Shown: positions 10,819-39,894 of the stretch, piece after piece | Layout: every line of letters starts with the position of its first letter | Numbering within the stretch: the first letter of the stretch is position 1 | Program-made: the position numbers and the translations under genes | Notes under the pieces: generated by a model | Seen by the model: the letters and a program-made list of their open reading frames with translations, nothing else | Told to the model about the DNA's origin: nothing | The model's database searches: none | DNA from: a virus | DNA: 64,000 nt | IMG/VR virus record: IMGVR_UViG_3300045988_171858 | Strand: one strand, 5' to 3'

Positions 10819-11460
10819 TTACAGGAAGTCGATATCGACATCCTTAGCCTCTACGGCATTGTTTTCGTTATCAGCTTCAGTTTCTTCAATGCTTAATTGG
10901 CCAATACACTGATTATATACGTCAAATGCAGGCTTAATCATTCGGCCCACAAATGTCTTTTCTACAATCAGGTTGAACCATTTAGCAATTTCAGGGTCTT
11001 TCAAATCAATAGGCTTGCCATCATTATCAACGGTCTGACCTTTATTGTGCATACGTAGGAAATCACCGGTAAGCTTAATCAGATTATGTTGGTCAGCCCA
11101 AATAGCAATATTGATAATGGTCATAGCTGTTTCACGGCTATATCCCATTTCATTCACAATCGCTTCTACTACTTCTTTATGGACTGTCTGGTCAGAACCT
11201 AATGTCCCTAACATGAACTTTTGATGTTGAGTCGCGCCGCCCTTGATATGCTTGATCGCATTGATTACATACCGTTCATTAGTTTCGGTATATACATGGT
11301 CACATTCTTGGGCAATATTTTCATTGAGCGGGATTTTAACAAACTCTTTACCGGTTTTACCAGAAATGGCGCGATAAGCCAAATCTGAGCCTTCATTCAG
11401 CAATGCCAAATAAAGCTCAATAAGCATACCGAACTGCCACGCGTTATTAGTGCCGGGCAT
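10819..11460 (-). CDS. hypothetical protein (213 aa)
   Basis: ORF track. Clean coding frame. Confidence 0.7.
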   Translation of the reverse strand: MPGTNNAWQFGMLIELYLALLNEGSDLAYRAISGKTGKEFVKIPLNENIAQECDHVYTETNERYVINAIKHIKGGATQHQKFMLGTLGSDQTVHKEVVEAIVNEMGYSRETAMTIINIAIWADQHNLIKLTGDFLRMHNKGQTVDNDGKPIDLKDPEIAKWFNLIVEKTFVGRMIKPAFDVYNQCIGQLSIEETEADNENNAVEAKDVDIDFL

Positions 11461-11732
11461 ATGTTATCTTAAGGGTTTTTTATCCCTTAATTCTAGGACT
11501 TTCGTCGCATTACGGAATGTCAATTCATTCCTAGTTCAGCATATATTTTCATTCCAGAGGAATGTCGGGAACTCGTGGAGAAATTATATTCTACAAAAGT
11601 AGGTTCATTCTCTATGCGTTACGGAATTAATGGCCTTAGCCAATATATACATCTTTTAAAACGTATACTTCCTCGGTATTCCCATATCCAAAGACTTAGG
11701 GTTCACCGATATTTCCCGATGCACCTATAAGC

Positions 11733-14558
11733 TTACACCCATAGGGGGCCCAATTGACCAACGGCTTTCTTCGCGTTAGCAGAGTTTGTAATCAAGTCAA
11801 TGTAGCTTTCATCACCAGGACGCTTACAATAGGTAGGAGTATAGTGCAACTTATACTTCTTGGTCCAATCCAATTTCTTAATGCTGTCGTATTCTGACTG
11901 CAGGAAATCTTCATCCCATTGATACATCTTTTCTGTGATGTTGCTAAGCTTGAACTCCTTCATCATTTGCTGAGCTTCTTCTGGCAATACAGTAATCTGT
12001 AACAGGTCGCCGTCAATATCTGAGTGGCTACCTTTGATTACGTCTTTACCAATCAATGCGCAGTGCAAATTGGATTTAATATCCAGATAATCTTCCAGTG
12101 CAAAACCATATTCTTGCTTGAGGTAAGTGTCGAATTTGTTTGCGTCCCACAATTCTTTAATCAGCACCTGCGTTTTCCACAAGAACGGTGAACGTAATGT
12201 GAATGCATAGAGCTTCTTAAAGGCCTGAATAATGCCTTGTTCAACCGGCAGGTTTTTGGTTGGATAGACATATTCATGCAAATCGGTATAAATACGGTTA
12301 TTCAATACAACGACGACGCCGTCTGGGACGTATACATCGTGCATCTGTTTCATATTCACGCCGCGCAATCGTGGGGTAATCATAGTCTGAATCAGCGTCT
12401 GTCCTGAAATCTCCGAAGAGTACAACATAGACTTCAAGGATGCCATATAATTGCCATAAGCACTTACACGGTTTTGGTTAGCCTCATTGCGGCTCGGAAT
12501 AATCCGATAGTAATAAGGTTTACCAAGCAAAGCATTCTGAATCATCTTGCAGACTTCAATCAGGATGCCGGGATAGACATATTCACCATTGGTTTGCTTA
12601 CTGCAAAACATACCCAAAGTTTTAGCATCTGGAATACAGACTAACGTATTTTGACGCTGTTCGCTCAAATTGATATAGAATCCTTTGTTAAAGTCTTCAT
12701 CAAGAAGCTTAGAATACAATGGAAAGATAGAGCTATGTTCCAGAATCAAATCTTTTTCGGAGAAGTGATTCTTTAAACTACTTAATGTATAAACAGGTTT
12801 ATGCTCGGCAGACACAAAGCGGCGCGTCTTATCATTCAGACATTTCATCAACTCAATTACTGCTGACTTTTCATCTGGGTCAATACAATGGTCCAATACA
12901 TATTGCGCCAATCCAGAATCTTTAGTCTGAGAAATATAGCGCAAAGCATTGAAACTCATCTTTTGGTTACGAACCACTGTAAAATGGCTACCAATTTCGG
13001 TATAGTTGATTTGAACAACACCGTATAATCGGGTTTTGAATTCGACTTCCTCCCCTTCACGAATCATCTTGAAGGTTACTTCCGGAATGGACTTAGCAGC
13101 GGCATTGATTTCCTCTTCATCCATAGACGAGAGAAGCTTATCGCCGGAGGTAGGCTTGTAGTAACCATACTTCAATGCAAATGCAGCCTGCATTAAACGT
13201 ACGGTATTTTCCTTAGCTTTGATGCTATTGACACCTGTTAAGATATCAACTTCCATTTCGAAATCATCGGAGTAGATATTACCACAAGTCATCATGGTTT
13301 TGGTTACGCCTTTCAGACCTGTATGAGAAGTGATTCGTGAATTGCCTACTTTATAGTATGCTACGAAATCAATACGGGCTGAATTGTTATAACCGTTTTG
13401 AGATACTTTGGTTACTTCAATTTTAACGACGTTATCTACTGAGATTGGACGGCGGTCGAATGTGCCTAATGTTACAGACCCATTTTTTGCTGTATACACT
13501 TCGCCTTCTTTCACGAGAATCTCATCGAATTCCGTTTCTTTATGACGATTCATGAATACGATTTGATTACCAATACGACGGTTTACTTCTAAGTCGCCGC
13601 CGACTTGGTGATAGCTTTCAAAATCAATATCTTGATATACAACAATAGCATCCAACCCTCCATTATCCAAAGGAACATGGTCGCCTTTATCATCAAAGAC
13701 AAACGAACCATCAGGATTCACTGCAGCATCTTCAATGAACAAAGGCTTAGCGGGTTGCAATACGCCAAAGTGGTTGCCGTTTACATGAGTCTTCAAACGA
13801 GCAGGCAACGCAGAGGCTCGAGGGAAGATAGAAGAGAAACCTACAATACGACCATCATCATCGTATTCAAATCCAAAGCCTGAGCACGAAATATCAGCAT
13901 TGCCATCAGAAACAACAATCTTATTGCTTTCAGAAAGCATAGTTTCAGAACCGGGCATCAGATTGAAGCAATTAGCCATAGCTGTAATAGCTTCTTTATC
14001 TGGACTTGTAATTACACGCTGATGGACCAAATCACCAATAGGAAGATTCTGGTTCTTATAAACCAAAGAGGTGCCGGTATTGGTGCTGTAAGGAGCCCAT
14101 AAGACCAGAAGATTTGAAGACTTCAGGTTCGCATTAAATGCATTAGGACTTACATATTCAACGAAATTGGTAATCAACTTGATATCACGGCGAATGTAGG
14201 TCGTAAAAATCTCGTTGTTCTTCAGAGCGTCTTCAAATCGTTCAGCCAAGAAGAAGAACAGCATTTCAAAATGGTTAATCATTTCAATCGGCGCCCGTTT
14301 ATTGATATGGCGCGAACAGAAAGCGAAATGAGGCCAATGGTTCTTCGGATTAAAGAACGATTCAGGAATAATAAATTCGGTCTCAACAGTCTTTTCGTTG
14401 ATAGTATTAATCACCTTGAATCCGAACGTATTAGGCTTCAACTCAAACTCAATGCGCCCTTCAGTAGTCAAATGCTCACGAAAGATTGCATAGACTTCTG
14501 CTGGTGTAGAGTTTTTGCTGATTACTGGAATATGCCCTTGGGAAATTCTTAAGTGCAT
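11733..14558 (-). CDS. single-subunit two-barrel (double-psi beta-barrel) RNA polymerase-like protein, YonO/crAss type, copy 1 (941 aa)
   Basis: Start moved to ATG 14558; the track start lies inside the upstream terminator element. Beta-type DPBB motif GNSRITSHTGLKGVTK (nt 13305-13325) resembles GDKMAGRHGNKGVISK. Beta-prime-type LRSPFLWKTQVL resembles RAPTLHRLGIQA. Metal motif HSDIDGDLL (DIDGD at nt 12006-12020) resembles NADFDGDQM. Confidence 0.8.
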   Translation of the reverse strand: MHLRISQGHIPVISKNSTPAEVYAIFREHLTTEGRIEFELKPNTFGFKVINTINEKTVETEFIIPESFFNPKNHWPHFAFCSRHINKRAPIEMINHFEMLFFFLAERFEDALKNNEIFTTYIRRDIKLITNFVEYVSPNAFNANLKSSNLLVLWAPYSTNTGTSLVYKNQNLPIGDLVHQRVITSPDKEAITAMANCFNLMPGSETMLSESNKIVVSDGNADISCSGFGFEYDDDGRIVGFSSIFPRASALPARLKTHVNGNHFGVLQPAKPLFIEDAAVNPDGSFVFDDKGDHVPLDNGGLDAIVVYQDIDFESYHQVGGDLEVNRRIGNQIVFMNRHKETEFDEILVKEGEVYTAKNGSVTLGTFDRRPISVDNVVKIEVTKVSQNGYNNSARIDFVAYYKVGNSRITSHTGLKGVTKTMMTCGNIYSDDFEMEVDILTGVNSIKAKENTVRLMQAAFALKYGYYKPTSGDKLLSSMDEEEINAAAKSIPEVTFKMIREGEEVEFKTRLYGVVQINYTEIGSHFTVVRNQKMSFNALRYISQTKDSGLAQYVLDHCIDPDEKSAVIELMKCLNDKTRRFVSAEHKPVYTLSSLKNHFSEKDLILEHSSIFPLYSKLLDEDFNKGFYINLSEQRQNTLVCIPDAKTLGMFCSKQTNGEYVYPGILIEVCKMIQNALLGKPYYYRIIPSRNEANQNRVSAYGNYMASLKSMLYSSEISGQTLIQTMITPRLRGVNMKQMHDVYVPDGVVVVLNNRIYTDLHEYVYPTKNLPVEQGIIQAFKKLYAFTLRSPFLWKTQVLIKELWDANKFDTYLKQEYGFALEDYLDIKSNLHCALIGKDVIKGSHSDIDGDLLQITVLPEEAQQMMKEFKLSNITEKMYQWDEDFLQSEYDSIKKLDWTKKYKLHYTPTYCKRPGDESYIDLITNSANAKKAVGQLGPLWV

Positions 14559-20842: not shown

Positions 20843-20847
20843 AGAGC

Positions 20848-22172: not shown

Positions 22173-22195
22173 GATAACTCCCAATATAATATTTA

Positions 22196-23317: not shown

Positions 23318-23560
23318 TATCTTGCTTCTATATAAATCAAGGACTTAGTATAAATCGCTCCCAAGGAATATAAGCCACATTGGAAGCAATCATTAATATG
23401 TTACATTACAGTATTTTAGGCCTTTTTATAGCCTATTATTTTAATTTGAACAAATATTGTGGTTCTATATAAATCAACAACTTAGATAAGGTCGCTCCCT
23501 TAGCTGTATCAAACGTTTTAAGTCGTTCATTAATATATTACACGTATCATAGTATAACCG
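23318..23560. repeat. two ~95-nt direct repeats, 137 nt apart
   Basis: Shared blocks are TTCTATATAAATCAA / ACTTAG / TCGCTCCC / TCATTAATAT.TTACA, at about 23325-23415 and about 23463-23555. Confidence 0.75.
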
Positions 23561-23574
23561 ACACTATTATGGTT
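23548..23574 (-). repeat. CSE core copy without a good 5' arm
   Basis: Minus strand reads ...CATAATA-GTGTCGGTT-ATACTATG. Confidence 0.6.
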
Positions 23575-24030
23575 GTTTGGGCTTATATCCAATCGGAAGT
23601 TTATCTTCCACCAATACAAGGATAGCCGCGCCCGTTCATATTATTTGTAAGTACAGTTCATATTGCCTGCATGTATATGGTCCCATTATTAGGTTCGCGC
23701 CATGTATTATATGTCCATATGTACTACCTGCACTCTATTATATACTAGGGCTATATATGCCCGTCTGTATTGTTCGTATATTAGCACCTTATTCTTTTTG
23801 TATTGTTCTATATGCTTCTATTGTTTCTCTTCTATTATTTGCTTTTCTTTTTATACAATAGGGACTGATTATATACGACTTCCCGCCGCGCCGGTCCACT
23901 CAAAACACCATCAAAAATACCAAAACAAATCACCAAAGTTATATATGACAAATAGAAATTTCAGAATTCAACGAGACTGCATTCAACCAGTCAAAAATCA
24001 AAAACAACAACTCAACCAACCTCAAATTTT

Positions 24031-24070
24031 TAAAATAAAAAATGCCAGTGCACCCTTATACAGGGCACAC
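24031..24070 (-). terminator. intrinsic terminator downstream of 24125..25504
   Basis: Minus strand reads GTGTGCCC-TGTATAA-GGGTGCAC followed by TGGCATTTTTTATTTT. Confidence 0.6.
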
Positions 24071-24124
24071 CAGCATTCAGTAGACTAATAGGGGCTCGCT
24101 TACGCTCGCCCTTATCAGACTCTA

Positions 24125-25504
24125 TTAGAACGGTTCGTCACCTTTCGGTTCAGCTTGTACAGGTTCCGCCGGTTTGGCTTGGCCACGACGAGGACGTTTG
24201 GTTTCTTTGGTAGCTGCAGGCTTCTCGGCTTCTACTTTTGCAGTATCAGCGAAGATATCTACATCACCCAAGTCCAGACCATTAACATCGATGCTGTCCA
24301 AATCAACATCAGCGGCAACAGTAACAGAGCCGGTTTCGTTACGGTTAACGATATAGCCGTCCATAGTTACGCGGGCGGTTACTACCCATGGTTGACCTTG
24401 CTCTTCGTCTTCACGAGGAGTGCGGCTTTCGAAACCCAAGACATTGTTCTCGGTGAACATGATTTCGTCCGCATTGGCGCTGACGTTATCAAAGGCTTCG
24501 GCACGGGTTTGTCCACGACCATTATTGCTGTTGCTGTACATTACTGCACGGACAGTAACATCATTACCGCGGCTGTCCTTGAAGTTCACGAACTTACGGC
24601 AATATTGGGTAGGATTAGTACCCTCAGTTACTTGGACACCAGCCAGATATCCTTCATGCAGTTCGTCTTGCTCCAGAGTAGTCATTTCGGCTTGACCAGT
24701 AATAGTCAGGCAGAAGTTAGGAGCAATGCGGCCGTATGCACGTGGGGTTGTACGGACATCGATTTGCTTACCGTTGCTAGTGGTTTTGTAGCTTGCTGCA
24801 GCAATTGGTACAATGCAAGGGCTCAAGCCATTTGCACCAACGTAGATTGTAGTAGAAGTGGCAATTGCACCGGCTTCAATCAGGCGTTTGATTTCGGCTT
24901 TGTAACCGGCAACGATTTTGGCCATCATTTCGGACAGCTGCTGTTCAGAGAAGGCTACACGTTCGCCGTCTTTTTCCTTGGCGGTAACGATGTTCTTCTC
25001 ATGGCTGATGAATGCAGAACCAGACAGCAGGGCTTCATAGGCCTTGGAGAGACTCAAAGCTTTCAGTGCCAGACCGTTTGCCTTTTCGTACCATTCGGCG
25101 CCAAATACAGGGCCTACAGGAACGGGGAAGTTTGCCAGCTTGCCGTTTTGGATAGACAAACCATTGAAGCCTGCATCCAGAAATTCCATTGCATTTGCAT
25201 TGGCATTACGGACAGATGCTACGATTTGGTTGGTAGTCATACCTTCAACGTATTGAACACCATCATCGGCGTTGGTAGCAATCCAACAGGGGCGTCCGTT
25301 GCCGCGAGACATCGGTTGGTTGGCGATCATGTGCACCAGTTTGTATACGGATACACGATAGCCCAAAGCCTCGGCTTCGTCTGGACGTGCATCCAGAACG
25401 TAAAAGGTGCGGCGACTTGCAGGCATTGGAGTTGCTACTTGGCCGGAGATAGAGTGGGATTTGCGGGCGCCAGTGTTCAGGTTGCCAGTTTCGATTTCAA
25501 ACAT
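24125..25504 (-). CDS. abundant-looking early/middle protein; possible ssDNA-binding-type protein with SSB-like C-terminal tip (459 aa)
   Basis: Start moved to MFEIETGN (AAAGGAAAA RBS). Strongly biased, GC-richer codon usage similar to the capsid genes. Disordered K/P/E/A-rich tail ending ...KGDEPF, compared with the E. coli SSB tip DDDIPF. The function is an inference only. Confidence 0.8.
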   Translation of the reverse strand: MFEIETGNLNTGARKSHSISGQVATPMPASRRTFYVLDARPDEAEALGYRVSVYKLVHMIANQPMSRGNGRPCWIATNADDGVQYVEGMTTNQIVASVRNANANAMEFLDAGFNGLSIQNGKLANFPVPVGPVFGAEWYEKANGLALKALSLSKAYEALLSGSAFISHEKNIVTAKEKDGERVAFSEQQLSEMMAKIVAGYKAEIKRLIEAGAIATSTTIYVGANGLSPCIVPIAAASYKTTSNGKQIDVRTTPRAYGRIAPNFCLTITGQAEMTTLEQDELHEGYLAGVQVTEGTNPTQYCRKFVNFKDSRGNDVTVRAVMYSNSNNGRGQTRAEAFDNVSANADEIMFTENNVLGFESRTPREDEEQGQPWVVTARVTMDGYIVNRNETGSVTVAADVDLDSIDVNGLDLGDVDIFADTAKVEAEKPAATKETKRPRRGQAKPAEPVQAEPKGDEPF

Positions 25505-25597
25505 AATGATTTTCCTTTTAGGTTGATTTAAAATAAAGATTCTTTCGGTCAAGATTCAGACCATAGAGCTGTTTTGTATTGAGGTCAGCTCTGTTTT

Positions 25598-25640
25598 CCT
25601 CATAAAAACACCGACACGACAATTTCTGCCGCGCCGGTAT
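25598..25640 (-). terminator. CSE copy
   Basis: Minus strand reads ATACCGGCGCGGC-AGAAATTGTC-GTGTCGGTG-TTTTTATGAGG. Confidence 0.75.
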
Positions 25641-25643
25641 CTG

Positions 25644-25943
25644 TTATTTCACCTTAACACTTCGCAGATAAGAATCCGCAAAATTAAGAGAACGTTCAAC
25701 GTAAGCTACACTAGGGTCATTAAGCGCAGTTACACTATTCAGGCTATCAGACAATACAACAGCCTCTGGATTGCATTGTTTAGCAAAACGAATTGCTTCC
25801 AGTTCAGCCGCATTATTATCAGAGGCCCGTATGATTTTATACCCATTGATGCCCATATTAAATGAGCAGTAACCAATAGCCCATCGGTTACCGCCCACTA
25901 AACGAGCATCGCAGTATATTTGATTAGGCTGCGGATGCTGCAT
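25644..25943 (-). CDS. minimal RNase H-like domain protein (99 aa)
   Basis: GGAGG RBS. Contains IYCDARL (catalytic Asp region), DNNAAELEAIRFA (the N.AEL.A motif) and VVLSDSLN (the DS motif). Confidence 0.65.
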   Translation of the reverse strand: MQHPQPNQIYCDARLVGGNRWAIGYCSFNMGINGYKIIRASDNNAAELEAIRFAKQCNPEAVVLSDSLNSVTALNDPSVAYVERSLNFADSYLRSVKVK

Positions 25944-26892
25944 TTACAGCCTCCACACGTTCTTTCATAGCCTTGATGATGATGCCATCACGTCCACTAC
26001 GACCAAAGTCACTGGTAGTTGCTGCATCGAGGATAGACAGCATTTTACCTAAGGTATAGCCGGCGATATCACGAGCAGTGCCCAAGATTTTGATTACACC
26101 CCCATAGACGTACATAACCAAACCTTTGGCCAAGTCGAGTACAAATGAACCGCCGCGTTTGCAGCCAACCCAAATCTTGTGGCTCCAACCTTCTTTGTCT
26201 TCTTCATCAGTTGCATCAACCAGAGCAGACAGGAATGTACTGAATTCACCGGCCACTTCTTCATCAGCTTCTTTCAAAGCTTCATAGAACATATTGGCGG
26301 CTTCGTTAACCGCATCATTTTCGGCGGTCAATGTAGATACGCCAGTAGCATCGGACTTACGTTTATAGTGAGCCAGAGCAGTGATGTAGGTTGCAACATC
26401 TTCATACAGCTCGGGCGTTACTTCTTCGCCTTCAAAGTTCAAGATGTTGGTTTTAACATCTTCAACGGCCTCGATGAATTTCTTCCCTTCGAAGCTTGCT
26501 TTTGCTGCTGCAATTGTTGCGGGAGTTGTTTTGACAACAGATTTCAAGTTTTTCATGATTGGATTTCCTTTAGCTAAAGTTTCAGATTTGATTTCGGTTT
26601 TGGACAATTCTTCTGCCCGTTTAAATACGGATAGAGTAACAGGTCCAATTTGCTCCGGATTTTTGAGCTCGGTTCCAGAGATGGTGACCGTAACACCATT
26701 ATTCTCAACAAAGCCTTTTTGTGTGGCTTCACCCAATACAGAGAGCCATAGGACGGCTGTCTGTGTAATCTTTGCTTCTAACGGACCTTTATTAAACCCG
26801 TTAGCCTTTTGATATTGAAGCTCCAGTTTGTGAAGCTCACCCTGTAATTGAAGCAGGACCCTTTTTGCCTGCTTTTGGTTTTTGATTTCCAT
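25924..26892 (-). CDS. hypothetical coiled-coil/acidic protein (322 aa)
   Basis: Start moved to MEIKNQKQ (GGAG RBS). The track start ATG lies inside the CSE motif. Confidence 0.7.
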   Translation of the reverse strand: MEIKNQKQAKRVLLQLQGELHKLELQYQKANGFNKGPLEAKITQTAVLWLSVLGEATQKGFVENNGVTVTISGTELKNPEQIGPVTLSVFKRAEELSKTEIKSETLAKGNPIMKNLKSVVKTTPATIAAAKASFEGKKFIEAVEDVKTNILNFEGEEVTPELYEDVATYITALAHYKRKSDATGVSTLTAENDAVNEAANMFYEALKEADEEVAGEFSTFLSALVDATDEEDKEGWSHKIWVGCKRGGSFVLDLAKGLVMYVYGGVIKILGTARDIAGYTLGKMLSILDAATTSDFGRSGRDGIIIKAMKERVEAVNAASAA

Positions 26893-26921
26893 AACGGACT
26901 CCAACAAGGCAACGTGCCTTT

Positions 26922-26960
26922 CCATAAAAATACCGACACCGAATCAAATCGGCGCCGGCA
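26922..26960 (-). terminator. CSE copy
   Basis: Minus strand reads TGCCGGCGCCGA-TTTGAT-TCGGTGTCGGTA-TTTTTATGG. 12-bp stem with three G.U pairs. Confidence 0.85.
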
Positions 26961-26967
26961 TTCTTTT

Positions 26968-27264
26968 TTAAACCAGTTCAAAATAGGGGTCGTAAATAGT
27001 GCCCTTATGCTTATATTTACCGTCCTCTAATTCATAGACGGTAACATTTTGTCCTACTGGTAACGAGGTGTCACAAACGTAGATTTTAGTGAAGCCCAAA
27101 GAACGCAGACTTTCATCTGCATTCTTATCAGACGAATGCTCATACATGTCAATCCACTCTGCCTCGAGCTTACCGATATTGGATTTCAATACGACAGTTT
27201 TACCGTATGCCCAATGGCGGATTTGACGTAAAAAGCGGTTAATAGAAGGGGTTTTCTTAGCCAT
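26968..27264 (-). CDS. hypothetical protein (98 aa)
   Basis: ORF track. GGAGA RBS. Confidence 0.7.
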   Translation of the reverse strand: MAKKTPSINRFLRQIRHWAYGKTVVLKSNIGKLEAEWIDMYEHSSDKNADESLRSLGFTKIYVCDTSLPVGQNVTVYELEDGKYKHKGTIYDPYFELV

Positions 27265-27302
27265 GATATTATCTCCATAAGAGGCTGTTGTTAAGATATT
27301 TA

Positions 27303-27340
27303 CCGCAAAATAACCGACACCTTTTACGGGCGCCGGTTAT
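27303..27340 (-). terminator. CSE copy
   Basis: Minus strand reads AACCGGCGCC-CGTAAAA-GGTGTCGGTT-ATTTTGCGG. Confidence 0.85.
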
Positions 27341-27346
27341 TGTTAT

Positions 27347-27781
27347 TTAGCCATTGATACGAATTGACTCAACAGCCTCTTGAATGCTGTCAAAGTCAGG
27401 GCCTTTAGCTTCTTGTTCAGGTTCGGTATCGATAGCTTCCATCAAAACTTCACCATATTCCGCATTCACGGATTTCATCTTGAACGCAAACAATGCAATT
27501 GCCGGAGCAACAGTAATGAGCATATTAAATGCTGCATCAACGCCTTTGTTATAGACGTTGCACAATTTGCAGAACCAGTCACTGTTGACTTTAATATCAA
27601 CAGCAACACCATCTTCGATGTTTTCTTTTTCCCAATGGATGATGTCTTTCTTAATTTTGACGTCATTGGTTTTGCTGGCATTCAGCATTTTCCGAATCAC
27701 TTTGGAATATTCGGAGAACGAGCCCATGATAGTGGACATGGCATTGATTTCAGCAGGATTGAATTCGAAACGGATTTTCAT
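27347..27781 (-). CDS. hypothetical protein (144 aa)
   Basis: Start moved to MKIRFEFN (GGAGG RBS). Confidence 0.7.
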   Translation of the reverse strand: MKIRFEFNPAEINAMSTIMGSFSEYSKVIRKMLNASKTNDVKIKKDIIHWEKENIEDGVAVDIKVNSDWFCKLCNVYNKGVDAAFNMLITVAPAIALFAFKMKSVNAEYGEVLMEAIDTEPEQEAKGPDFDSIQEAVESIRING

Positions 27782-27831
27782 GATTAACCTCCAGTGGTCA
27801 TAAATATTAAAAGTTTGCGGCATTTGCCACT

Positions 27832-27859
27832 CCACAAAACAACCGACACAAAACCGTTG
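27832..27859 (-). repeat. CSE core copy (weak stem)
   Basis: Minus strand reads CAACGGTTTT-GTGTCGGTT-GTTTTGTGG. Confidence 0.6.
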
Positions 27860-28061
27860 ATATTAAGTAACCTATATTCAATACGGAGTTTGTGAAAGTC
27901 TTAGCGGATTTGTATGCGTGGATATACAGCTTTGAGCTTAGGTTATTTGTCCAGCGGGCGGAAAAAGAATGGCCGCAACAATATTATCACAAGACAATAG
28001 AGTGCGGCCCAAAGTTTATGGAGGTAAAAAGATGAAAACAACGTTGGGAGTCCTTACTTTC

Positions 28062-28107
28062 CCAAAAAGGGACCGACACCAAGAGCAACAAGGCTCAAGG
28101 TATCGGC
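28062..28107 (-). terminator. CSE copy (long loop)
   Basis: Minus strand reads GCCGATACC-(loop 19 nt)-GGTGTCGGT-CCCTTTTTGGG. Confidence 0.65.
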
Positions 28108-28130
28108 AAAACTTACAAAAGGGAAATATG

Positions 28131-28163
28131 TCATAAAAGAACCGACACAAATTGCGAGGCCCT
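28131..28163 (-). repeat. CSE core copy (weak stem)
   Basis: Minus strand reads ...GCAATTT-GTGTCGGTT-CTTTTATGAC. Confidence 0.6.
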
Positions 28164-28177
28164 TCGTATTGGAATGC

Positions 28178-28387
28178 CTACTTAACTTCAGCATCCCCAC
28201 GAACCAATTCTTCAGCAGGAACACCTTTATAAGGGTCAGCTTCCTTAACAATGACAGGCTTACAGGTGCTAGGTTTAGTCATGGCCTTACCAGCCATAAC
28301 AAGATTGAATCCTAACATAATAAACCAAGAGCCAACAAGAATAATGGCCAAAGAAACAATAATCCAATCGGGAATACGTTTAAACAT
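28178..28387 (-). CDS. small membrane protein (69 aa) with N-terminal R.PDW motif
   Basis: Start moved to MFKRIPDWIIVSLAIILVGSWF (GGAGG RBS). The track start ATG lies inside the CSE motif. Confidence 0.65.
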   Translation of the reverse strand: MFKRIPDWIIVSLAIILVGSWFIMLGFNLVMAGKAMTKPSTCKPVIVKEADPYKGVPAEELVRGDAEVK

Positions 28388-28413
28388 CTGAAACCTCCAG
28401 AAAAATAAAATTA

Positions 28414-28452
28414 TCATAAAATAACCGACATCCTTTTACAGATGCCGGTTAT
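28414..28452 (-). terminator. CSE copy
   Basis: Minus strand reads AACCGGCATC-TGTAAAAG-GATGTCGGTT-ATTTTATGA. Confidence 0.85.
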
Positions 28453-28456
28453 TATT

Positions 28457-28804
28457 CTATTTAAGAGACTCCAAGACTTGCCAATGGGCCTGTACATACA
28501 GATCTTTGACATAGCTCTCTACAAGGCGATTAAAACTTTGTTCTGGGGTAATATCAGGATGCCCAGCTAAGACTTGTTCATCATCGCGTTCCTCTTGCAA
28601 TTCGTACATATCGTGGGCAATATCCCCATCACTGAACTCTGCTGCAAGATAGGACTTATAGTCGTCAACAGAGCGATAGTCTTCATCTTTCAGCTCTTTC
28701 AAGAACTCTTCTTTTGCTGCCTCTTCAGCAGCCGCTTCAAATTCCTTGCGCTCGGCAAGGTTATACCATACTTGCGACAAGTTTTTAGTTGGAACGTATT
28801 TCAT
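28457..28804 (-). CDS. hypothetical acidic protein (115 aa)
   Basis: Start moved to MKYVPTKN (GGAGG RBS). Confidence 0.7.
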   Translation of the reverse strand: MKYVPTKNLSQVWYNLAERKEFEAAAEEAAKEEFLKELKDEDYRSVDDYKSYLAAEFSDGDIAHDMYELQEERDDEQVLAGHPDITPEQSFNRLVESYVKDLYVQAHWQVLESLK

Positions 28805-28858
28805 TTTAGCCTCCATAGCTATTTAAAAATTATAATTGAGAAGAACAATTCTTCTCTT

Positions 28859-28894
28859 CCATAAAAGAACCGACACTTAAACTTTGGCCGGCTC
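28859..28894 (-). terminator. CSE copy
   Basis: Minus strand reads GAGCCGGC-CAAAGTTTAAGT-GTCGGTTC-TTTTATGG. Confidence 0.8.
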
Positions 28895-28904
28895 TTGTAT
28901 TGAT

Positions 28905-28991
28905 TTACTTAAACAGAAGTCCAATAATAAGACCTCCAAGAATTCCTGCAATCATAGAGATTACAGCCCAATCGGGAACGGAGCTTCTCAT
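28905..28991 (-). CDS. possible 28-aa membrane peptide with R..PDW motif
   Basis: My own translation gives MRSSVPDWAVISMIAGILGGLIIGLLFK. GGAGGA RBS 4 nt upstream. Resembles the N-terminus of the 28178..28387 product. Confidence 0.45.
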   Translation of the reverse strand: MRSSVPDWAVISMIAGILGGLIIGLLFK

Positions 28992-29021
28992 AAATCCTCC
29001 AGGATAAAAGATTAAATGCTT

Positions 29022-29058
29022 CCCATAAAAAGACCGACACCAAAATCTGGGCCGGTCC
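29022..29058 (-). terminator. CSE copy
   Basis: Minus strand reads GGACCGGCC-CAGATTTTG-GTGTCGGTC-TTTTTATGGG. Confidence 0.8.
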
Positions 29059-29066
29059 TGTACCTT

Positions 29067-29270
29067 TTAGATGAAAGCGAACTCTTCGATATGGTCAAAT
29101 TCCAAATGACCATCCTCGAATACATTAAACACTACAAGTTCATCATCATTAACGTGGTCAACAATAACCTCGCCATAGTGCTTCCAGACAGAGATAGAGC
29201 CAATTTTATTCATATCGGCCCTTAAACTCTCTATGGAATCGTAGCGTTTTTTGAATTCAAAACTAACCAC
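29067..29270 (-). CDS. hypothetical protein (67 aa; GTG start, uncertain)
   Basis: ORF track. Start is a GTG 2 nt after the upstream stop. Confidence 0.5.
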   Translation of the reverse strand: MVSFEFKKRYDSIESLRADMNKIGSISVWKHYGEVIVDHVNDDELVVFNVFEDGHLEFDHIEEFAFI

Positions 29271-29272
29271 GA

Positions 29273-29449
29273 CTAGTCATCCAGTCCTTTGACTTCAATG
29301 TCAACAACATCCATATCTTCCATGCATGCAACGGTTTCTGCATACTCGTATACATAGTCGACATCCATGGGTTTAACATAAGACACGAGACGGTCCTTAT
29401 GGCTACCGTCTTCGAAAGTGTATCGAATCAAGAAATCTGTGTATTTCAT
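29273..29449 (-). CDS. hypothetical acidic protein (58 aa)
   Basis: Start moved to MKYTDFLI (GGAGG RBS). Confidence 0.6.
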   Translation of the reverse strand: MKYTDFLIRYTFEDGSHKDRLVSYVKPMDVDYVYEYAETVACMEDMDVVDIEVKGLDD

Positions 29450-29478
29450 TTTGAAACCTCCATTGAAAGAATTATTAT

Positions 29479-29511
29479 CAGTAAAAGACCGACACATTCC
29501 TGCACCGGTCC
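29479..29511 (-). terminator. CSE copy
   Basis: Minus strand reads GACCGGTGC-AGGAAT-GTGTCGGTC-TTTTACTG. Confidence 0.8.
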
Positions 29512-29520
29512 AAAATTCTG

Positions 29521-29817
29521 TCAGAACGGGTGATCTTCACTCGCGTTCTCTTTGTGGAACTTCTCTGCATATTTAGAAGCCCACTTATTAGAATTCATGC
29601 AACCTTTACCTGGGGTTGCAAACTCATGAACGGCGGAGCAGTAAACTGCCATACCATCCTGAGTCGGAATCCTACGGAACCAGCCGGGGATGTCCTTTTC
29701 AGACATCTCAACGCCAACTGGCATAATGAAACTTACGCCACGATACGCAGCGCTGTTAACATCACCGGCACAAAGTTGTGCAAACGGTGAATCTGGGGTA
29801 ATGACGAATTGTCGCAT
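29521..29817 (-). CDS. hypothetical protein (98 aa) ending ...SEDHPF
   Basis: ORF track. GGAGGG RBS. Confidence 0.7.
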   Translation of the reverse strand: MRQFVITPDSPFAQLCAGDVNSAAYRGVSFIMPVGVEMSEKDIPGWFRRIPTQDGMAVYCSAVHEFATPGKGCMNSNKWASKYAEKFHKENASEDHPF

Positions 29818-29843
29818 ACCCTACCCTCCGAGAAAGAAAAGAA

Positions 29844-29870
29844 AACGGTAGGACGAATCCTACCACCGTT
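29844..29870 (-). terminator. intrinsic terminator directly upstream of 29817
   Basis: Minus strand reads AACGGTGGTAGGA-TTCG-TCCTACCGTT followed by TTCTTTTCTTTC. Confidence 0.7.
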
Positions 29871-29895
29871 GAAAGACCGACACCAGAACCGCTCC
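29866..29895 (-). repeat. CSE copy
   Basis: Minus strand reads GGAGCGGTTCTG-GTGTCGGTC-TTTCAACGG. Confidence 0.65.
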
Positions 29896-29974: not shown

Positions 29975-32900
29975 TTACAGCATATCAATGGCTGCATCCA
30001 TATCAACTTCGTGGTAAGACTCGGTCTCAACAGCCTCACCATTAGCCAAAGCTTCTGCCTCAGCAGATTTAACCTCGGCAATAGTTTGGATTTGTGCAAT
30101 CACTTCGCGGCTCAGAGATTTTAAGATGAAGCTGAAAGGCGATTTGCCATTAACGTCCAGTAGGTTATTAACAGCTTTAACATCATCAAGGCCAAAGAAG
30201 AAGGACGTATTGTAAACCTCGGTCACATCTTTGGTGTAAACGGTAAAGTGCACGTTTTTCCAAGTGGCGGTGTGAGCCATACGGACTGCATTGGCTTTAT
30301 TCCAACGATAACCTTCTTGGCCACGGCTACGTTTGTCTTCCTCAAACAGTTCGACGAACAGCTTAGCGATCTCATAAGCCTTGGCATCGTCTTCGATAGA
30401 CATCAATTCGAATGCTTTTTCAAAAGCCTCGGTCATGCAATCAAGGTCAGTCTCCTTGTTGCGCAGGTTTAAATATTCGCAGAAACGAACCATACCATTG
30501 CTATGTTTCATATTCTCTACGACTTCTTTTTGCAGCAAGATGCCCATAGCATCAATAGCCAGGTTGGCCAACTCACTATAACCAGCTTTATTGCGGATCA
30601 AATGTGTCAGAGTAATCAGATTATTAGTCTCGCTACCAACACCAGTTTTTGCGGCGACAATTTCCTCCACTGCCGGTTGTACGTCCTCTTTGCCCCATAC
30701 CATAACAGATTTCTCACCAATCTCCTTGGTATTCAAAGAACCCAGCTCGTCTTCTACGTATGAGAGCTGTTGTTTGGCACTATTACATGCCAACAACTTA
30801 GACTCGCTCCATTGTTCTTGGCCTTCATAGCCTTTGGCCCAGAACAAAGTCAAACGGTCGCCGTCGGCGTCGTCCCTATTGGCCATATGAGACAGTGCGT
30901 CTACAAACACAACGCTCTCGCAGATGAAACGATTCAGCTCTAACTCAGCTTCTGACTCAAACGCCATCAGAGTTTTAACTTCCGCATTGTATAAACGGAA
31001 GTTATTTTCCATCAAAATTGGGAATTTGATGGCTCCGACTTCACCCTTCTTGGCGGCCTCTTTGTAGCTACGGTCCGCAGTTATCACTTTAAATCCAGAT
31101 TCAAAATGGTAGCTAACCGGCAAAGAACGACCTTTAGGCAAAGAGAATTTCAAACCTTTGTAAGCACCGAAAGTTTCCTCGATAGCCAGCAGGTGCTTAG
31201 CATGGGTTTTAACCAAGCCTACAGCTTCCCAAGTTTTAGTACCTCTGGTTTTAGCCATGAGTACAATAGAAGCGAGAGACTTGAAGAAGTCGCCACCAGT
31301 GTATTGTAGCCCGGATACATGGTAACCAGTGATTGTCTCTGGTTTATCCCAGAAGTTAGAGCCAGGGAATACAAAGCTGTGGTCTCCAGCTACAACTTCG
31401 AAACCGCGAGGCATATTTAACAGGCCGGGGAATTTACCTTTGCCATTAAACAGGTTAGTAAGGAATGTCTTCATAACAGACTCAGCGGTCTCATCACCAA
31501 CCAGAGACACGCGTTTAACTTGCTCAACAGACAAAGATCCATTACCTGCAAACATAACGGCGAACTTATCCGCCCACCAGGTACGAGTCATGGCCAAGAA
31601 TTCATTTGCAGTAACAGTCCAATCCACAGATTTAGCAGCAGCAACCGCTTTGGCAGTGCGTTTACCAGTGCGGCCTGCAATGAAAGTTTTGAACAAAGTC
31701 TCACCATATTGACGGATCATTTGGTCCGCCAAAAGAACACCACCTTCTGCAGAGTGAGACACTGCTTCAACAGTGCCAGCACGTTTCATCTCTAAAAGAC
31801 GAACTACAGGCGAATATGTTGTATCGCCAGCTTTCAACTCTGAAAGAAGCTCGTTCATCAAAGTCATTTCAGGCGCCTCAATTTCTACACCCTCGATTTT
31901 GTCATTGACGCTAATTTCCGCGCCAACTCGTTTGTGTCCTTGCAACGTATAGAAGTCAGAGACATAAATCTCCTCTTCAATCAGGGCAAACGTATAAGTG
32001 AGGCCATCGATATTTACAGACTTGCTATTAAGGGTAATCGCCGTATTGGCAGTTGCACGAAAATCAGCGTCCTCCAACAAACGCAACATAAATTGGCTTA
32101 AATCGCCACCCATAATTGCATGTGCTACACCTACCATCTTAGATTTAAGCATAGGAGACACAATATCAACGCCCAGATAGTCGATCAATGCGTCAACATT
32201 GGCAACGTTTGTTACCACACCTTTCAAGTGGTGGAAGCTAACCACGCGCATTTTGCCGTACTGCTGGATTAAGGTTTTACGGGCATAGCATGCACCACCA
32301 CCCAGATTCATTGCCAAGGGGTGGGCTTTAGCTTGTTCCAGGGTCTTAACTTTGTTGCCTTCTTCGTCCGTTACAGACAACAGCACCGCAACCTTACGTA
32401 CGCCAATAGATACCTTAGTGTCCAGATCGGGATTCAGGATGCCCCTAGCAATAGCCTTTTTAACATCATAAACGCTGATGTATTTACCAGTCAGCTCAGG
32501 ATGATTAACCGCTACCATATTATTACCAGCTTTGCGGCTAATGAACATAGCCTCTCCAACAGGCATTCCAAGTTTCCAACTGGTATCAGGAGACGTATTA
32601 AGCAGGTCGCCCTGTTTGACCACTACACCTTTAGGTGCAGGTTTATCGGCTTTAACAACTACGACACCTCCTGATTTACGCTTCAGGGCGTCTACCAATT
32701 TTACACCTTCAGTATTGATTCCGACCATCCAGTCGAGCAGAACTTCGATAGATTCTGTGACTGACGCAATCCCATTCTTGTAAGACACAAAACCGTGACG
32801 GACAACAGTTTCGCGGCCCAATGGAGAATTGATCAAAGAAGTTGCAATAGTCCCACGTTGTGCAACAACGCGAACAGAGCCCTTTTTAGGACGGCGGATG

Positions 32901-33382
32901 TTAATATCCACTTTACCCACGATAGGCAGGCTTTCACCGGCTTTGATAGTGCAGATTTCACGAGCCCAGCTTTTGATAGTATCCAGCTCCTCTTGTGTTG
33001 GCTCTTTGCCGGCTTTAACTTGCTCAATGCGCTGCACGTGGCAAGGCACACCTTCTACTTCAAAACTGTAAGCCATTTCTTCCTCCTTGGCTGTATTTAA
33101 AACAAGGGCCTCTACTTCTGCATTAGCCCAAGATAATGCTTCTTTTCTAGAGCCCACCTCTTTAACAGAAATGACAGTCCCGTCTTTGACAACCGCTATT
33201 AATTCAGGACGCATAGCAGCGGCTTTGCTATTACTCAGAGCAACAACCTCAACACCAGCTACGGCACGAATGCCGGCTTTGATGTGAGCTTTATGCTCGT
33301 ATTGTTCTACAGCAGCTTCGTAAGCTTTAGCAGCAGCAGCATTAACAGAAGAAACAAAGGTTTTGAAAGTAATAGTTGACAT
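29975..33382 (-). CDS. single-subunit two-barrel RNA polymerase-like protein, YonO/crAss type, copy 2 (1135 aa)
   Basis: Start moved to MSTITFKT (AAAGGAAA RBS). Beta-type DPBB motif GKMRVVSFHHLKGVVTN (nt 32213-32233). Beta-prime-type AIKFPILMENNFRLYNAEV. Metal motif ANRDDADGDRLTLFW (DADGD at nt 30857-30871). The motif order matches 11733..14558, but the two sequences are otherwise highly diverged. Confidence 0.75.
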   Translation of the reverse strand: MSTITFKTFVSSVNAAAAKAYEAAVEQYEHKAHIKAGIRAVAGVEVVALSNSKAAAMRPELIAVVKDGTVISVKEVGSRKEALSWANAEVEALVLNTAKEEEMAYSFEVEGVPCHVQRIEQVKAGKEPTQEELDTIKSWAREICTIKAGESLPIVGKVDINIRRPKKGSVRVVAQRGTIATSLINSPLGRETVVRHGFVSYKNGIASVTESIEVLLDWMVGINTEGVKLVDALKRKSGGVVVVKADKPAPKGVVVKQGDLLNTSPDTSWKLGMPVGEAMFISRKAGNNMVAVNHPELTGKYISVYDVKKAIARGILNPDLDTKVSIGVRKVAVLLSVTDEEGNKVKTLEQAKAHPLAMNLGGGACYARKTLIQQYGKMRVVSFHHLKGVVTNVANVDALIDYLGVDIVSPMLKSKMVGVAHAIMGGDLSQFMLRLLEDADFRATANTAITLNSKSVNIDGLTYTFALIEEEIYVSDFYTLQGHKRVGAEISVNDKIEGVEIEAPEMTLMNELLSELKAGDTTYSPVVRLLEMKRAGTVEAVSHSAEGGVLLADQMIRQYGETLFKTFIAGRTGKRTAKAVAAAKSVDWTVTANEFLAMTRTWWADKFAVMFAGNGSLSVEQVKRVSLVGDETAESVMKTFLTNLFNGKGKFPGLLNMPRGFEVVAGDHSFVFPGSNFWDKPETITGYHVSGLQYTGGDFFKSLASIVLMAKTRGTKTWEAVGLVKTHAKHLLAIEETFGAYKGLKFSLPKGRSLPVSYHFESGFKVITADRSYKEAAKKGEVGAIKFPILMENNFRLYNAEVKTLMAFESEAELELNRFICESVVFVDALSHMANRDDADGDRLTLFWAKGYEGQEQWSESKLLACNSAKQQLSYVEDELGSLNTKEIGEKSVMVWGKEDVQPAVEEIVAAKTGVGSETNNLITLTHLIRNKAGYSELANLAIDAMGILLQKEVVENMKHSNGMVRFCEYLNLRNKETDLDCMTEAFEKAFELMSIEDDAKAYEIAKLFVELFEEDKRSRGQEGYRWNKANAVRMAHTATWKNVHFTVYTKDVTEVYNTSFFFGLDDVKAVNNLLDVNGKSPFSFILKSLSREVIAQIQTIAEVKSAEAEALANGEAVETESYHEVDMDAAIDML

Positions 33383-33725: not shown

Positions 33726-33757
33726 TATAATAACACTCTGTATTGAATGCCATTATA

Positions 33758-33805
33758 GATAAGATAAAAAGAGGATGTGTAAGACTGGAGTTTCCTACAC
33801 ATCCT
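33758..33805 (-). terminator. intrinsic terminator
   Basis: 10-bp stem AGGATGTGTA/TACACATCCT, followed on the minus strand by CTTTTTATC. Confidence 0.7.
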
Positions 33806-34000: not shown

Positions 34001-34123
34001 GGTAAGTCCTTTCGTGACTAATAAAGGTTAAAAAGAATTTATAAATGAAAGCTATCCAGTTCACCCCAGGGGGCAAATTCCGGATATATCCCCATGGACA
34101 GGGATATCATTAATAGACACCAG

Positions 34124-34340
34124 GTCCTCACACGCATTACATCAACAACTCCAACAACATATCCTGCCTGTTCTGGTGTTGAATGTCCTCACACACATTT
34201 TCATTCGATTCACTGAAACACCTTCATTTCATGAACTTTTCGGAAATACCGTCCTCACACGCATTACATTCACCTTTTCAAAAATACATCCATTTCATAA
34301 AACATTTTGCCCAAATATCCTCACACATATCACTCACACA
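34124..34340. repeat. four degenerate tandem repeats (61-66-nt period) with core (G/A)TCCTCACAC(G/A)CAT
   Basis: Cores start at 34124, 34185, 34251 and 34317. Copies 1 and 3 are identical over 19 nt (GTCCTCACACGCATTACAT). Confidence 0.85.
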
Positions 34341-34414
34341 CCTCACACACCTCAAGTTTCACGCCATACCATTAGCCCATTCTCACTTCACTTCCAACCA
34401 ACCCCCAATCAGTC

Positions 34415-34433
34415 TTTTTGCCTTCGGCAAAAA
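34415..34433. terminator. bidirectional hairpin TTTTTGCC-TTC-GGCAAAAA
   Basis: Perfect 8-bp palindrome flanked by T and A runs. Confidence 0.5.
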
Positions 34434-34689
34434 TGATGGGTCCGCCGCGCCGGTCAATCTGATTTTGGGTCAATTATCACCCATCTGACCCCTGGGGGCT
34501 CAAATCAATGGGGTGTGGGTGTTTGGTTTTGGTCGGGCCGCCCATTTTAAAATTTTGTCATTTTTCACAGTCCCACGGGTTGACTTTTCTCATTGTTTCT
34601 GTTCTAATTGTTTCTACAGGGAGGGTCGCTCCCTCTTCTGTCTATTGATTCAGATTTTTAAAAAGCTTTTTAGAAAGTGATTTTGTTTT

Positions 34690-38625: not shown

Positions 38626-39585
38626 ATGATGTTGATGACGGAAGAACACCGTGTCGGGATAATCTACGGCGTCCGGTCTTCAAGAGACATCATCTTACTG
38701 TGAATTAGTCCTAGAGAAATCTAAATAACCTCGAGAGGCGAGGTCGGATGAGACAGTAATGAAACTCCTAGACGTGGGCGAGCCTAACCAAAGGAGTCAG
38801 TCGAAAACTCGTTGTTGAAGTAGCGTAAACTCCCTGATACAAACTCCCTGATTCAAAGTAATGTATCAAAGTAATACGAGAGGTGGCGAGTATAAATAAA
38901 TTTCCTGTTATGCAGTGGATTGTAACCGAAAATGATACAAGTAGGCCACATGGGAAGATGAAACATCTCTGGTCTTGTAGAGATAGCATATTGAGCTACA
39001 AGATGATACCGAAAGGTATGACTATAAATGGAAGTATAAACGGTCCATGGATTGAGTTCCTTGGAGGGTCAAGATGGGTGAAGAAAAAGCCTAGGGCATA
39101 GTTCTCTTACAATTAGGATTATGTCAGTAAGACATCTACGTTGTACAACAAGGTTAGACTGGGTTTAGTTAGATTAGATTCTAACTAGAAGACTGTATCA
39201 ATTTTTGTCTTCTAACCGTGCTTGGTTAGGCCTAACTGTATCTACAGAAAACGTAAACTTCCATAAGAAACGTATAATAGAGGCAAGTTTACTAAGATAA
39301 CTTCCGATTATAATAATAGATCGGCCGCGCAGGAGCGGCCCGGATAAAAGAAAAGAAACTTCCCAAAGCAAAAAGAAACTTACTGCAGATAGATAATATA
39401 ATCTATCGATACAAAGAATACTTATTACCCTATTGATGTAGATAATACATAGGCTGCTACCGCAGCCCTAAGTTACCAATAGGAAAATAAACATAGGCTT
39501 AGGATACTTACTTAAGCTTGTTGTAGTCTACAATTATATTTGATAATATTTGGAGGTAGCTTGATGCTACCTCCTATTTTATTTT
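38626..39585 (+). ncRNA. candidate ~0.95-kb non-coding early transcript
   Basis: Starts just after P2 and ends at a strong terminator. No ORF has a credible RBS. Many local hairpins and short tandem repeats. Confidence 0.3.
39552..39585 (+). terminator. intrinsic terminator
   Basis: GGAGGTAGC-TTGAT-GCTACCTCC followed by TATTTTATTTT. Confidence 0.85.
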
Positions 39586-39894
39586 GCAAGAGAAACTTAC
39601 TTAAGCAAATAATACTTACTGCTTCCTGTATTGGATGTATCCTATGGAAGCTTTTTAGAGATGTTCTGCTAAATCGTGGTTACACTGTCAGATTTAGTTC
39701 CTAGGTCATATATCCGGTTATTGCCTATGACCATGATTTAGCCTATACTAAATTATTCGATAGTAAAATAAGAATTCAGATTCTATTGCAAATTATACGG
39801 ATCTACTGTCTGCATCTATTTCCGTTTCCCTTGTTTTTAGTATTATGATGTAGTAAGAATAAGAATAATAATTTAACTCAGGATAATTAGTTCA

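Follow-up and report, generated by a model that had tools for sequence, protein, structure and literature searches.

Single-chain two-barrel RNA polymerases (RNAPs) are known from phages, among them YonO, gp66 of crAss-like phages (about 2180 aa in phi14:2), and gp99 of 0305phi8-36. The DNA analyzed here, referred to as the window, is a stretch of 64,000 nucleotides of phage DNA (41% GC) from the IMG/VR record IMGVR_UViG_3300045988_171858, and the gene in question is an uninterrupted minus-strand open reading frame (ORF) at 29975-33382, which starts with an ATG at 33382 and encodes 1135 aa. It is called copy 2 here, and a second minus-strand gene with the same motifs, at 10819-14558 and thus 15 kb downstream on the same strand, is called copy 1. 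The product of copy 2 is very probably a single-chain two-barrel RNAP, the second and a highly diverged one in an uncultured phage of about 185 kb.

The presence of two such enzymes in one phage has been described for the Thermus phage P23-45, which has two diverged single-subunit two-barrel RNAPs, the virion enzyme gp96 (fused to the tape measure) and the non-virion enzyme gp64, and in which the virion RNAP transcribes the gene of the non-virion RNAP (PMC10770324). Phages of the phiKZ/AR9 type carry virion and non-virion sets of multisubunit RNAPs (PMC7598289, PMC4666361). A preliminary description of the window, made from the sequence alone, had not known the arrangement from described phages, but the P23-45 pair (PMC10770324) and the phiKZ/AR9-type sets (PMC7598289) precede it. 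As in P23-45, one phage here probably carries two highly diverged single-polypeptide two-barrel RNAPs from an ancient duplication. However, there is no detectable sequence similarity between the P23-45 enzymes and the pair in the window, copies 1 and 2 are stand-alone proteins of about 1140 aa with an equal layout, neither of which is fused to a tail protein, and P23-45 is a long-tailed siphovirus, whereas the phage studied here is about 185 kb in size with a head-gene order like that of 0305phi8-36 and Acinetobacter phage ME3. The phiKZ/AR9-type phages also have two phage-encoded two-barrel RNAPs, which play separate temporal roles there, but these are made up of four to five polypeptides and resemble cellular beta and beta-prime more closely, whereas each enzyme of the window is one chain. 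A survey of viruses with two RNAP polypeptides contains no DADGD/DIDGD entry and none labeled 'Bacteriophage sp.' (PMC10770324), and the pair of copies 1 and 2 therefore appears to be undescribed.

YonO from the Bacillus prophage SPbeta, for which the dependence of RNA synthesis on the aspartate triad was examined biochemically (PMC5467207), resembles copy 2 in being a single chain in which the beta-type barrel precedes the beta-prime-type barrel, in having no recognizable sigma-binding modules, and in carrying the RxP...DxDGD signature (RSPHLF...DNDGD in YonO). The two differ in that they show no profile similarity, copy 2 is about 300 aa longer, and YonO occurs as a single enzyme in a temperate phage. 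Judged by sequence, the term 'YonO-like' in the preliminary description fits the architecture of copy 2 only, and membership in the YonO family in the strict sense is not supported. The crAss-like phi14:2 gp66 and QDE-1/RDR2 share with copy 2 the structural clade of single-chain two-barrel enzymes; unlike copy 2 as read here, gp66 is packaged and RDR2 and QDE-1 are RNA-templated. In 0305phi8-36 (L053), gp99 is encoded at 39026-42682 and annotated as 'hypothetical DNA-directed RNA polymerase, similar to RdRP Pfam05183' (RdRP, RNA-dependent RNA polymerase). Like copy 2, its gene is the first large one of a leftward block and adjoins a divergent structural module, and the two may represent a non-orthologous replacement at a conserved genomic slot. 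In ME3 (vB_AbaM_ME3, NC_041884), the head genes are ordered similarly (terminase, portal, major head protein) and a copy-1 homolog is present; the annotation of ME3 ties its structural genes to Bacillus phage 0305phi8-36.

Conserved motifs and predicted fold of copy 2

The coding sequence and its annotated parts are the following:

29975..33382, minus strand: coding sequence of copy 2, 1135 aa; predicted single-chain two-barrel RNAP, from homolog clusters and AlphaFold2 (AF2)/Foldseek
32633..33382, minus strand: N-terminal region, aa 1-250; kept within the close clade, aligns poorly to distant homologs
32129..32257, minus strand: beta-type barrel motif, aa 376-418, GKMRVVSFHHLKGVV...VDIVSPMLKSKMVG; R379, S382, K387, K413, and G418 invariant
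30839..31030, minus strand: beta-prime-type barrel motif, aa 785-848, IKFPILMENNFR ... NRDDADGDRLTLFW; K786, P788, D838, D840, G841, and D842 invariant
30857..30871, minus strand: DADGD, predicted Mg-binding aspartate triad D838/D840/D842; invariant in 33 close and 5 distant homologs
30584..30691, minus strand: bridge-helix-like long helix, aa 898-933, bearing AAKTGVGSETNNLITLTH; helix in the AF2 model, K912 and G916 invariant
30503..30532, minus strand: QKEVVENMKH motif, aa 951-960; Q951 and K959 invariant, counterpart VINAIKH in copy 1

A Shine-Dalgarno-like AAAGGAAA is located 5' of the ORF. A longer form with a GTG start at 33463 is possible but is without homolog support, the homologs beginning at MS.... 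All three peptides quoted in the preliminary description were found in the order given there, GKMRVVSFHHLKGVV at aa 376-390, IKFPILMENNFRLYNAEV at aa 785-802, and NRDDADGDRLTLFW at aa 835-848, and copy 1 has its motifs in the same order (SHTGLKGV, LRSPFLW, and SHSDIDGDLLQI with HSDIDGD). A six-frame scan found [RK]xP...DxDGD in just two ORFs of the window, those of copies 1 and 2. Copy 2 also passes the filter [RK]xPx{20,100}DxDxD taken from Supplementary Data 4 of PMC10770324.

A word-indexed search yielded 81 homolog clusters, all of them full-length with 70-90% identity, the source of which is phage contigs of about 170-189 kb. An exhaustive profile search among 1.84 billion representatives gave only nine matches, five of which are distant full-length lineages of 1015-1581 aa. 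Four public contigs, the longest of 189 kb, carry the exact protein, and close relatives have been deposited as 'MAG TPA: hypothetical protein [Bacteriophage sp.]' (e.g., DAD57603.1). Among 50,697 phage records, megablast and tblastn of copy 2 and tblastn of two distant homologs found no match, so that copy 2 has no counterpart among cultured phage records, and a further homolog search with a mixed alignment returned the close clade alone and added nothing. The family of copy 2 is extremely rare, and both copies represent unannotated families in a type of system that is already known.

Down to about 20% identity, R379, S382, K387, K413, G418, K786, P788, D838, D840, G841, and D842 are invariant, and so are K912, G916, Q951, and K959. 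These motif residues are essentially the only invariant columns of the distant alignment, in which the mean column identity is 37%, and their constancy goes well beyond coincidence. The proposal that copy 2 is an RNAP had been made dependent on the conservation of the DxDGD aspartates, and the triad varies in none of the close or distant homologs. The N-termini of the distant homologs differ in length, and their matches begin only at about aa 253.

A full-length AF2 model built on the 33 close homologs was unusable (predicted local distance difference test score [pLDDT] of 41.6) and was discarded; within this otherwise poor model, residues 15-100 form a small alpha/beta unit with a pLDDT of about 80. 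With the distant lineages added, a model of the core (aa 250-1010) reached a mean pLDDT of 71 and a predicted template modeling score of 0.69. The best match of the core model in the PDB, according to Foldseek, was Arabidopsis RDR2 (E value of 4.9e-3, probability of 0.96), and about 41 of the top 50 matches were large subunits of two-barrel RNAPs. The PDB matches include beta-prime of E. coli and M. tuberculosis, Pol II, Pol III, the RNAP of African swine fever virus, and P23-45 gp96 and P32 gp64 (8h2m, 8h2n, and 8f72 being P23-45-type enzymes). In BFVD, which holds predicted viral structures, the best matches had E values of 7.2e-4 to 0.06; several of the top entries are unnamed, and the matches include segments of giant proteins of crAss-like phages, a 'minor tail protein', a P23-45 protein, and phage RNAPs.

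Beta strands are found around both motif regions of the core model, and its similarity to two-barrel polymerases is that given by the Foldseek matches. A helix of 36 residues (model residues 649-684, corresponding to aa 898-933) bears the conserved AAKTGVGSETNN. In the model it sits at the place expected for the bridge helix, and its conserved AKxxxGxxTN motif recurs in copy 1. The comparison with cellular RNAP gave the following pairs of barrel motifs:

Beta-type barrel: copy 2, GKMRVVSFHHLKGVV...VDIVSPMLKSKMVG; E. coli beta, GDKMAGRHGNKGVIS...VDIVLNPLGVPSRMNIG
Beta-prime-type barrel: copy 2, IKFPILMENNFR...NRDDADGDRLTLF; E. coli beta-prime, NRAPTLHRLGIQ...NADFDGDQMAVH

The beta-type motif of copy 2, GKMRVVSFHHLKGVV...VDIVSPMLKSKMVG, lines up by eye with positions 1060-1110 of E. 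coli beta, GDKMAGRHGNKGVIS...VDIVLNPLGVPSRMNIGQ, and its form GKMRVVSFHHLKGVV...VDIVSPMLKSK parallels GDKMAGRHGNKGVIS...VDIVLNPLGVPSRM of the same subunit. The counterpart of the motif at aa 785-848 in E. coli beta-prime is NRAPTLHRLGIQAF...NADFDGDQMAVH, and the bridge-helix-like AAKTGVGSETNNLITLTH was compared with GARKGLADTALKTANSGYL of beta-prime.

Paralogy with copy 1 and co-occurrence of the pair

The gene of copy 1 is interrupted and consists of three parts:

11757..14558, minus strand: exon 1 of copy 1, 934 codons, with SHTGLKGV, LRSPFLW, and HSDIDGD
11458..11756, minus strand: insertion in copy 1, 299 nt, ORF-less, between the G and P codons of the conserved bridge-helix-like motif AKKAVGPGTNN
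10819..11457, minus strand: exon 2 of copy 1, 212 codons and stop

Once spliced, copy 1 has 1146 aa. Its uninterrupted relatives read ...AKKAVGPGTNN... at the insertion site; the insertion is absent from the close relatives L026, L027, L032, and L033 and present in L030. With U as the last nucleotide of the 5' exon and G as that of the insert, the junctions look like splice sites of group I introns, and the RNA of the insertion is structured (fold z-score of -3.2). An Rfam search of the 299 nt for the group I intron model gave no match even at E <= 1. By its sequence features, the insertion is a candidate group I intron. Directly downstream of copy 1, as a side observation, lies the gene of an rIIA-like protein that contains a GHKL ATPase domain.

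BLASTP of copy 2 against copy 1 found nothing significant, and at this level the earlier statement that the two share little beyond their motifs holds. When the families were compared as profiles with hhalign, they aligned with a probability of 96.3% and an E value of 1.6e-9 over 254 columns, which run from just before the [RK]xP strand via DxDGD and the AKxxVGxxTNN helix to xxMKH/xIKH, and the N-terminal halves of the families aligned over the beta-type motif with an E value of 1.7e-4. The motifs are collinear (copy 2/copy 1, K387/K416, K786-P788/R789-P791, D838-842/D847-851, and K912-G916/K930-G934), and every motif of spliced copy 1 lies within about 30 residues of its position in copy 2. 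Since spliced copy 1 is 1146 aa long and its motifs are collinear with those of copy 2, copy 2 has no extra N-terminal region, and the additional 400 or so residues attributed to it earlier do not exist. On these profile alignments, copies 1 and 2 are genuine paralogs, although very distant ones. The original identification as a two-barrel RNAP paralog is supported by the invariant catalytic motifs, by Foldseek matches almost only to two-barrel RNAPs, and by the hhalign E value.

The preliminary description had also read the GC-richer codon usage of copy 2 as a hint of a different expression level. The overall GC content of copy 2 is indeed higher (45.0% versus 40.5% in copy 1), but the values at third codon positions are 0.44 for copy 2 and 0.43 for copy 1, compared with 0.55 and 0.46 at first positions and 0.38 and 0.33 at second positions. 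Because the difference is confined to the first and second positions, it reflects amino acid composition, not codon choice, and says nothing about expression. Codon usage was therefore dropped as a clue to the expression class.

The search for the pair in related phages, which had been proposed together with the first reading, was carried out by scanning IMG/VR with both family profiles and gave 24 and 22 loci. Copy 1 is present on all 18 large contigs that have a copy-2 homolog and reach the expected position, and these contigs come from three clades. The contigs of the most distant copy-2 homologs, of 7-12 kb, are too short for this count. On the contigs whose coordinates were compared, copy 1 lies 14-16 kb downstream of copy 2 on the same strand. 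The identities to the proteins of the window are as follows:

Clade 1: copy 2, about 80-86%; copy 1, 80-98%
Clade 2: copy 2, about 35%; copy 1, 49%
Clade 3: copy 2, about 29%; copy 1, 45%

Copy 1 is spread more widely, being found on two contigs of about 230-240 kb and in ME3 without a detectable copy-2 homolog. The locus at 5980-10715 of ME3 is the only copy-1 homolog from a cultured phage (26% identity, 97% coverage). It is annotated as two hypothetical proteins parted by an 'endonuclease' gene, and this copy-1 homolog is thus also interrupted by a mobile insertion, at a site that differs from that in the window. There is no copy-2 homolog in ME3 according to tblastn, and no space for one at the syntenic position. 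ME3 gp152 provided no bridge to other cultured phages. ME3 could be used as a model in experiments on the copy-1 family.

Genome context and flanking signals

The minus-strand block of the window extends from 34.0 kb to about 1 kb and comprises copy 2, many small ORFs, copy 1, the rIIA-like protein, and a YadA-like adhesin. The plus-strand block begins at about 39.9 kb with the large terminase, portal, and major head protein. Counted from the divergent junction, copy 2 comes first apart from two tiny membrane-protein ORFs that precede it, and the signals next to it are the following:

33752..33805, minus strand: 5' of copy 2 and a small leader ORF; 13-bp hairpin and T-run overlapping the sigma-70-like TACACA-18-TATAAT
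29844..29883, minus strand: 3' flank of copy 2; one GTGTCGGT element, then a terminator-like hairpin and T-run

This repeated and strand-specific element, the GTGTCGR element, is composed of a 5' arm (A)CCGGCAC, a loop of about 4-12 nt, and a 3' arm GTGTCGGT, followed by yTTTTATGG. Exact GTGTCGGT cores occur 17 times on the minus strand and not once on the plus strand; with one mismatch allowed, 20 were found versus 4.6 expected. The 16 intergenic sites of the element span 14608-29883 on the minus strand (e.g., 14608, 20015, 25617, 26939, 27320, 29040, and 29883). One copy stands 5' of copy 1 and one 3' of copy 2, and no GTGTCGGT element is found upstream of copy 2. The element accompanies copy 1 as well as some 15 of the small genes that separate the two polymerase genes. 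It is also present in the relatives L014 and L021, and its core and U-rich tail are kept in three clades whose proteins share only about 30-50% identity. The stem has a G.U pair in most copies and a compensatory change from C-G to U-A between clades. The spacing of the element to the genes varies on either side and does not distinguish a promoter from a terminator. Judging by these sequence features, the element could act as a dedicated terminator, as a promoter, or in both ways.

Several other features of the window were recorded. The divergent intergenic region of about 700 nt contains four to six copies of GTCCTCACAC(R)CAT, 61-66 nt apart, at 34121-34354; judged from their sequence, these repeats could form a regulatory array or be the iterons of a replication origin. 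An 'ORF' of 101 aa at 34183-34488 is of low complexity and is probably non-coding. A HOLDH RNA (RF02997), which is a large structured RNA, gave a full-length Rfam match at 38626-39019 on the plus strand (397 bits versus a gathering score of 319, E value of 1.6e-107) and sits in a 1.5-kb gap before the plus-strand terminase/portal/head-protein block; a literature search on HOLDH found nothing relevant. A YadA-type adhesin ORF and the rIIA-like ORF lie at 6423-7895 and 8702-10810 on the minus strand. The YadA ORF (50% GC) has head, stalk, and anchor domains like those of trimeric autotransporters, and from its sequence the product may be a receptor-binding fiber and a hint of a Gram-negative host.

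Possible roles of the two polymerases

We consider it likely that copy 2 is a catalytically competent single-chain two-barrel RNAP and an ancient paralog of copy 1, and that both have been retained, most likely with distinct roles. The results above show the conservation of copy 2, its similarity at the level of the fold, its paralogy with copy 1, and the co-occurrence of the pair; for copy 2 we infer polymerase activity and DNA templating. The N-terminal beta-type barrel would supply the basic residues R379, K387, and K413, and the C-terminal beta-prime-type barrel, after which the bridge-helix-like helix comes, would supply the DxDGD magnesium triad of D838, D840, and D842. The active site would be formed between both barrels, giving an RNAP that is needed besides copy 1. 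Because the phage lineage keeps both enzymes, copies 1 and 2 are presumably not redundant. A division of labor, as suggested in the preliminary description, is plausible, and we infer one in which, by analogy with P23-45 and the phiKZ-type phages, the two most likely differ in the gene classes that they transcribe or in the time at which they act. We have good confidence in the assignment of copy 2 as a two-barrel RNAP and low confidence in the specific role of each copy.

The flanks suggest a tentative order. Since copy 2 has no upstream GTGTCGR element and takes the first place at the divergent junction, behind a sigma-70-like site, whereas the element precedes copy 1 and each of about 15 small genes, copy 2 may come first. 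It would be made or act first, and copy 1 would belong to the next class. A further step would be a largely host-independent cascade, in which copy 2 acts first and reads or stops at the hairpin/U-run elements with GTGTCGR, which punctuate the block of small genes and stand 5' of copy 1, and copy 1 drives later genes. This cascade is speculative, and we think it unlikely. If true, it would represent a new polymerase and signal pair, the signal of which is conserved across clades with about 30% protein identity.

Several results weigh against reading copy 2 as an RNAP. The AF2 core model was built on a shallow alignment of about six lineages, and single Foldseek E values are marginal, with no PDB match below 1e-3 and TM-scores of 0.1-0.27. 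When hhalign was run against single E. coli beta and beta-prime, it picked the expected motifs without significance (E values of 0.1-0.2, with 0.1 for beta). Against YonO, the E values were 0.34 for the copy-2 family and 0.29 for the copy-1 family, in irrelevant segments, and against gp99 the value was 0.38 for the copy-2 family, with no profile similarity for either family. No curated sequence library (Pfam, PHROGs, NCBIfam, and PDB sequence profiles) recognizes copy 2: Pfam, PHROGs, and NCBIfam scans of copy 2, copy 1, and the distant homologs found nothing relevant, the Pfam RdRP family (PF05183) had no match to copy 2 or the distant homologs, and PDB sequence searches with single sequences and both family profiles were without a match. 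The sigma-70-like site is a bare consensus match, and the promoter count is not above that of shuffled controls. Given the marginal Foldseek statistics, the fold call rests on the near-uniform identity of the matches together with the motifs, and as the hhalign comparison with the E. coli subunits is not significant, the fold assignment is well supported but not proven.

The absence of a curated family match, the marginal Foldseek statistics, and the unusable first full-length model could be taken to mean that copy 2 is not a polymerase at all, but a protein with another role, such as a structural or scaffold protein, whose motifs are coincidental. We regard this as highly improbable, as three motif sets are invariant at 20-35% identity while the mean column identity is 37%, the motifs are collinear with those of copy 1 in a significant profile match, and large subunits of RNAPs make up about 41 of the 50 top-ranked PDB matches. 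A two-barrel polymerase with a function other than mRNA synthesis is also conceivable, one that primes replication at the adjacent iteron-like repeats or that is RNA-templated like QDE-1/RDR. In favor of this, RDR2, an RNA-dependent RNA polymerase, is the best structural match, there are four to six GTCCTCACAC repeats at a distance of about 750 nt upstream of copy 2, and priming by RNAP has been suggested for jumbo phages without primases (PMC7824862). However, all phage and RNA interference enzymes of the clade would be expected to resemble RDR2, the phage single-chain members that have been tested (YonO, crAss gp66, and P23-45 gp64/gp96) are DNA-dependent transcriptases (PMC5467207; PMC10770324), and the repeats are a putative origin only. 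Such a function seems quite improbable to us.

It could also be proposed that copy 2 is delivered with the virion and injected for early host-independent transcription, with copy 1 as the non-virion enzyme, comparable to gp96 and gp64 of P23-45, the phiKZ sets, and crAss-like gp66. The described phages with two two-barrel RNAPs split their roles in this way (PMC10770324; PMC7598289), crAss-like giant proteins and tail-annotated entries are among the best BFVD matches, and the GTGTCGR element precedes copy 1 and not copy 2. Copy 1 is also the more widespread of the two, ME3 and the two contigs of about 230-240 kb appearing to hold it alone, which fits copy 2 being a lineage-specific addition. 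On the other hand, copy 2 is outside the structural module and transcribed divergently from it, in synonymous codon usage it sides with the minus-strand block rather than with the structural genes, and it equals copy 1 in size and lacks any fusion to a tail or giant virion protein. We therefore consider virion delivery of copy 2 possible but rather unlikely, and prefer the reading of copy 2 as an ancient, catalytically competent paralog of copy 1 with a distinct role.

Two-barrel RNAPs carry out all cellular transcription, and their single-chain phage relatives inform us about the minimal catalytic core and its evolution. The locus adds two families that no annotation resource recognizes and whose public copies are labeled 'hypothetical protein'. 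It provides a second natural example, besides P23-45, of a phage in which a single-chain RNAP was duplicated long ago, and the same size and layout of both copies make them a clean pair for studying the divergence of specificity. Annotation pipelines will treat such phages as polymerase-free and misjudge their dependence on the host.

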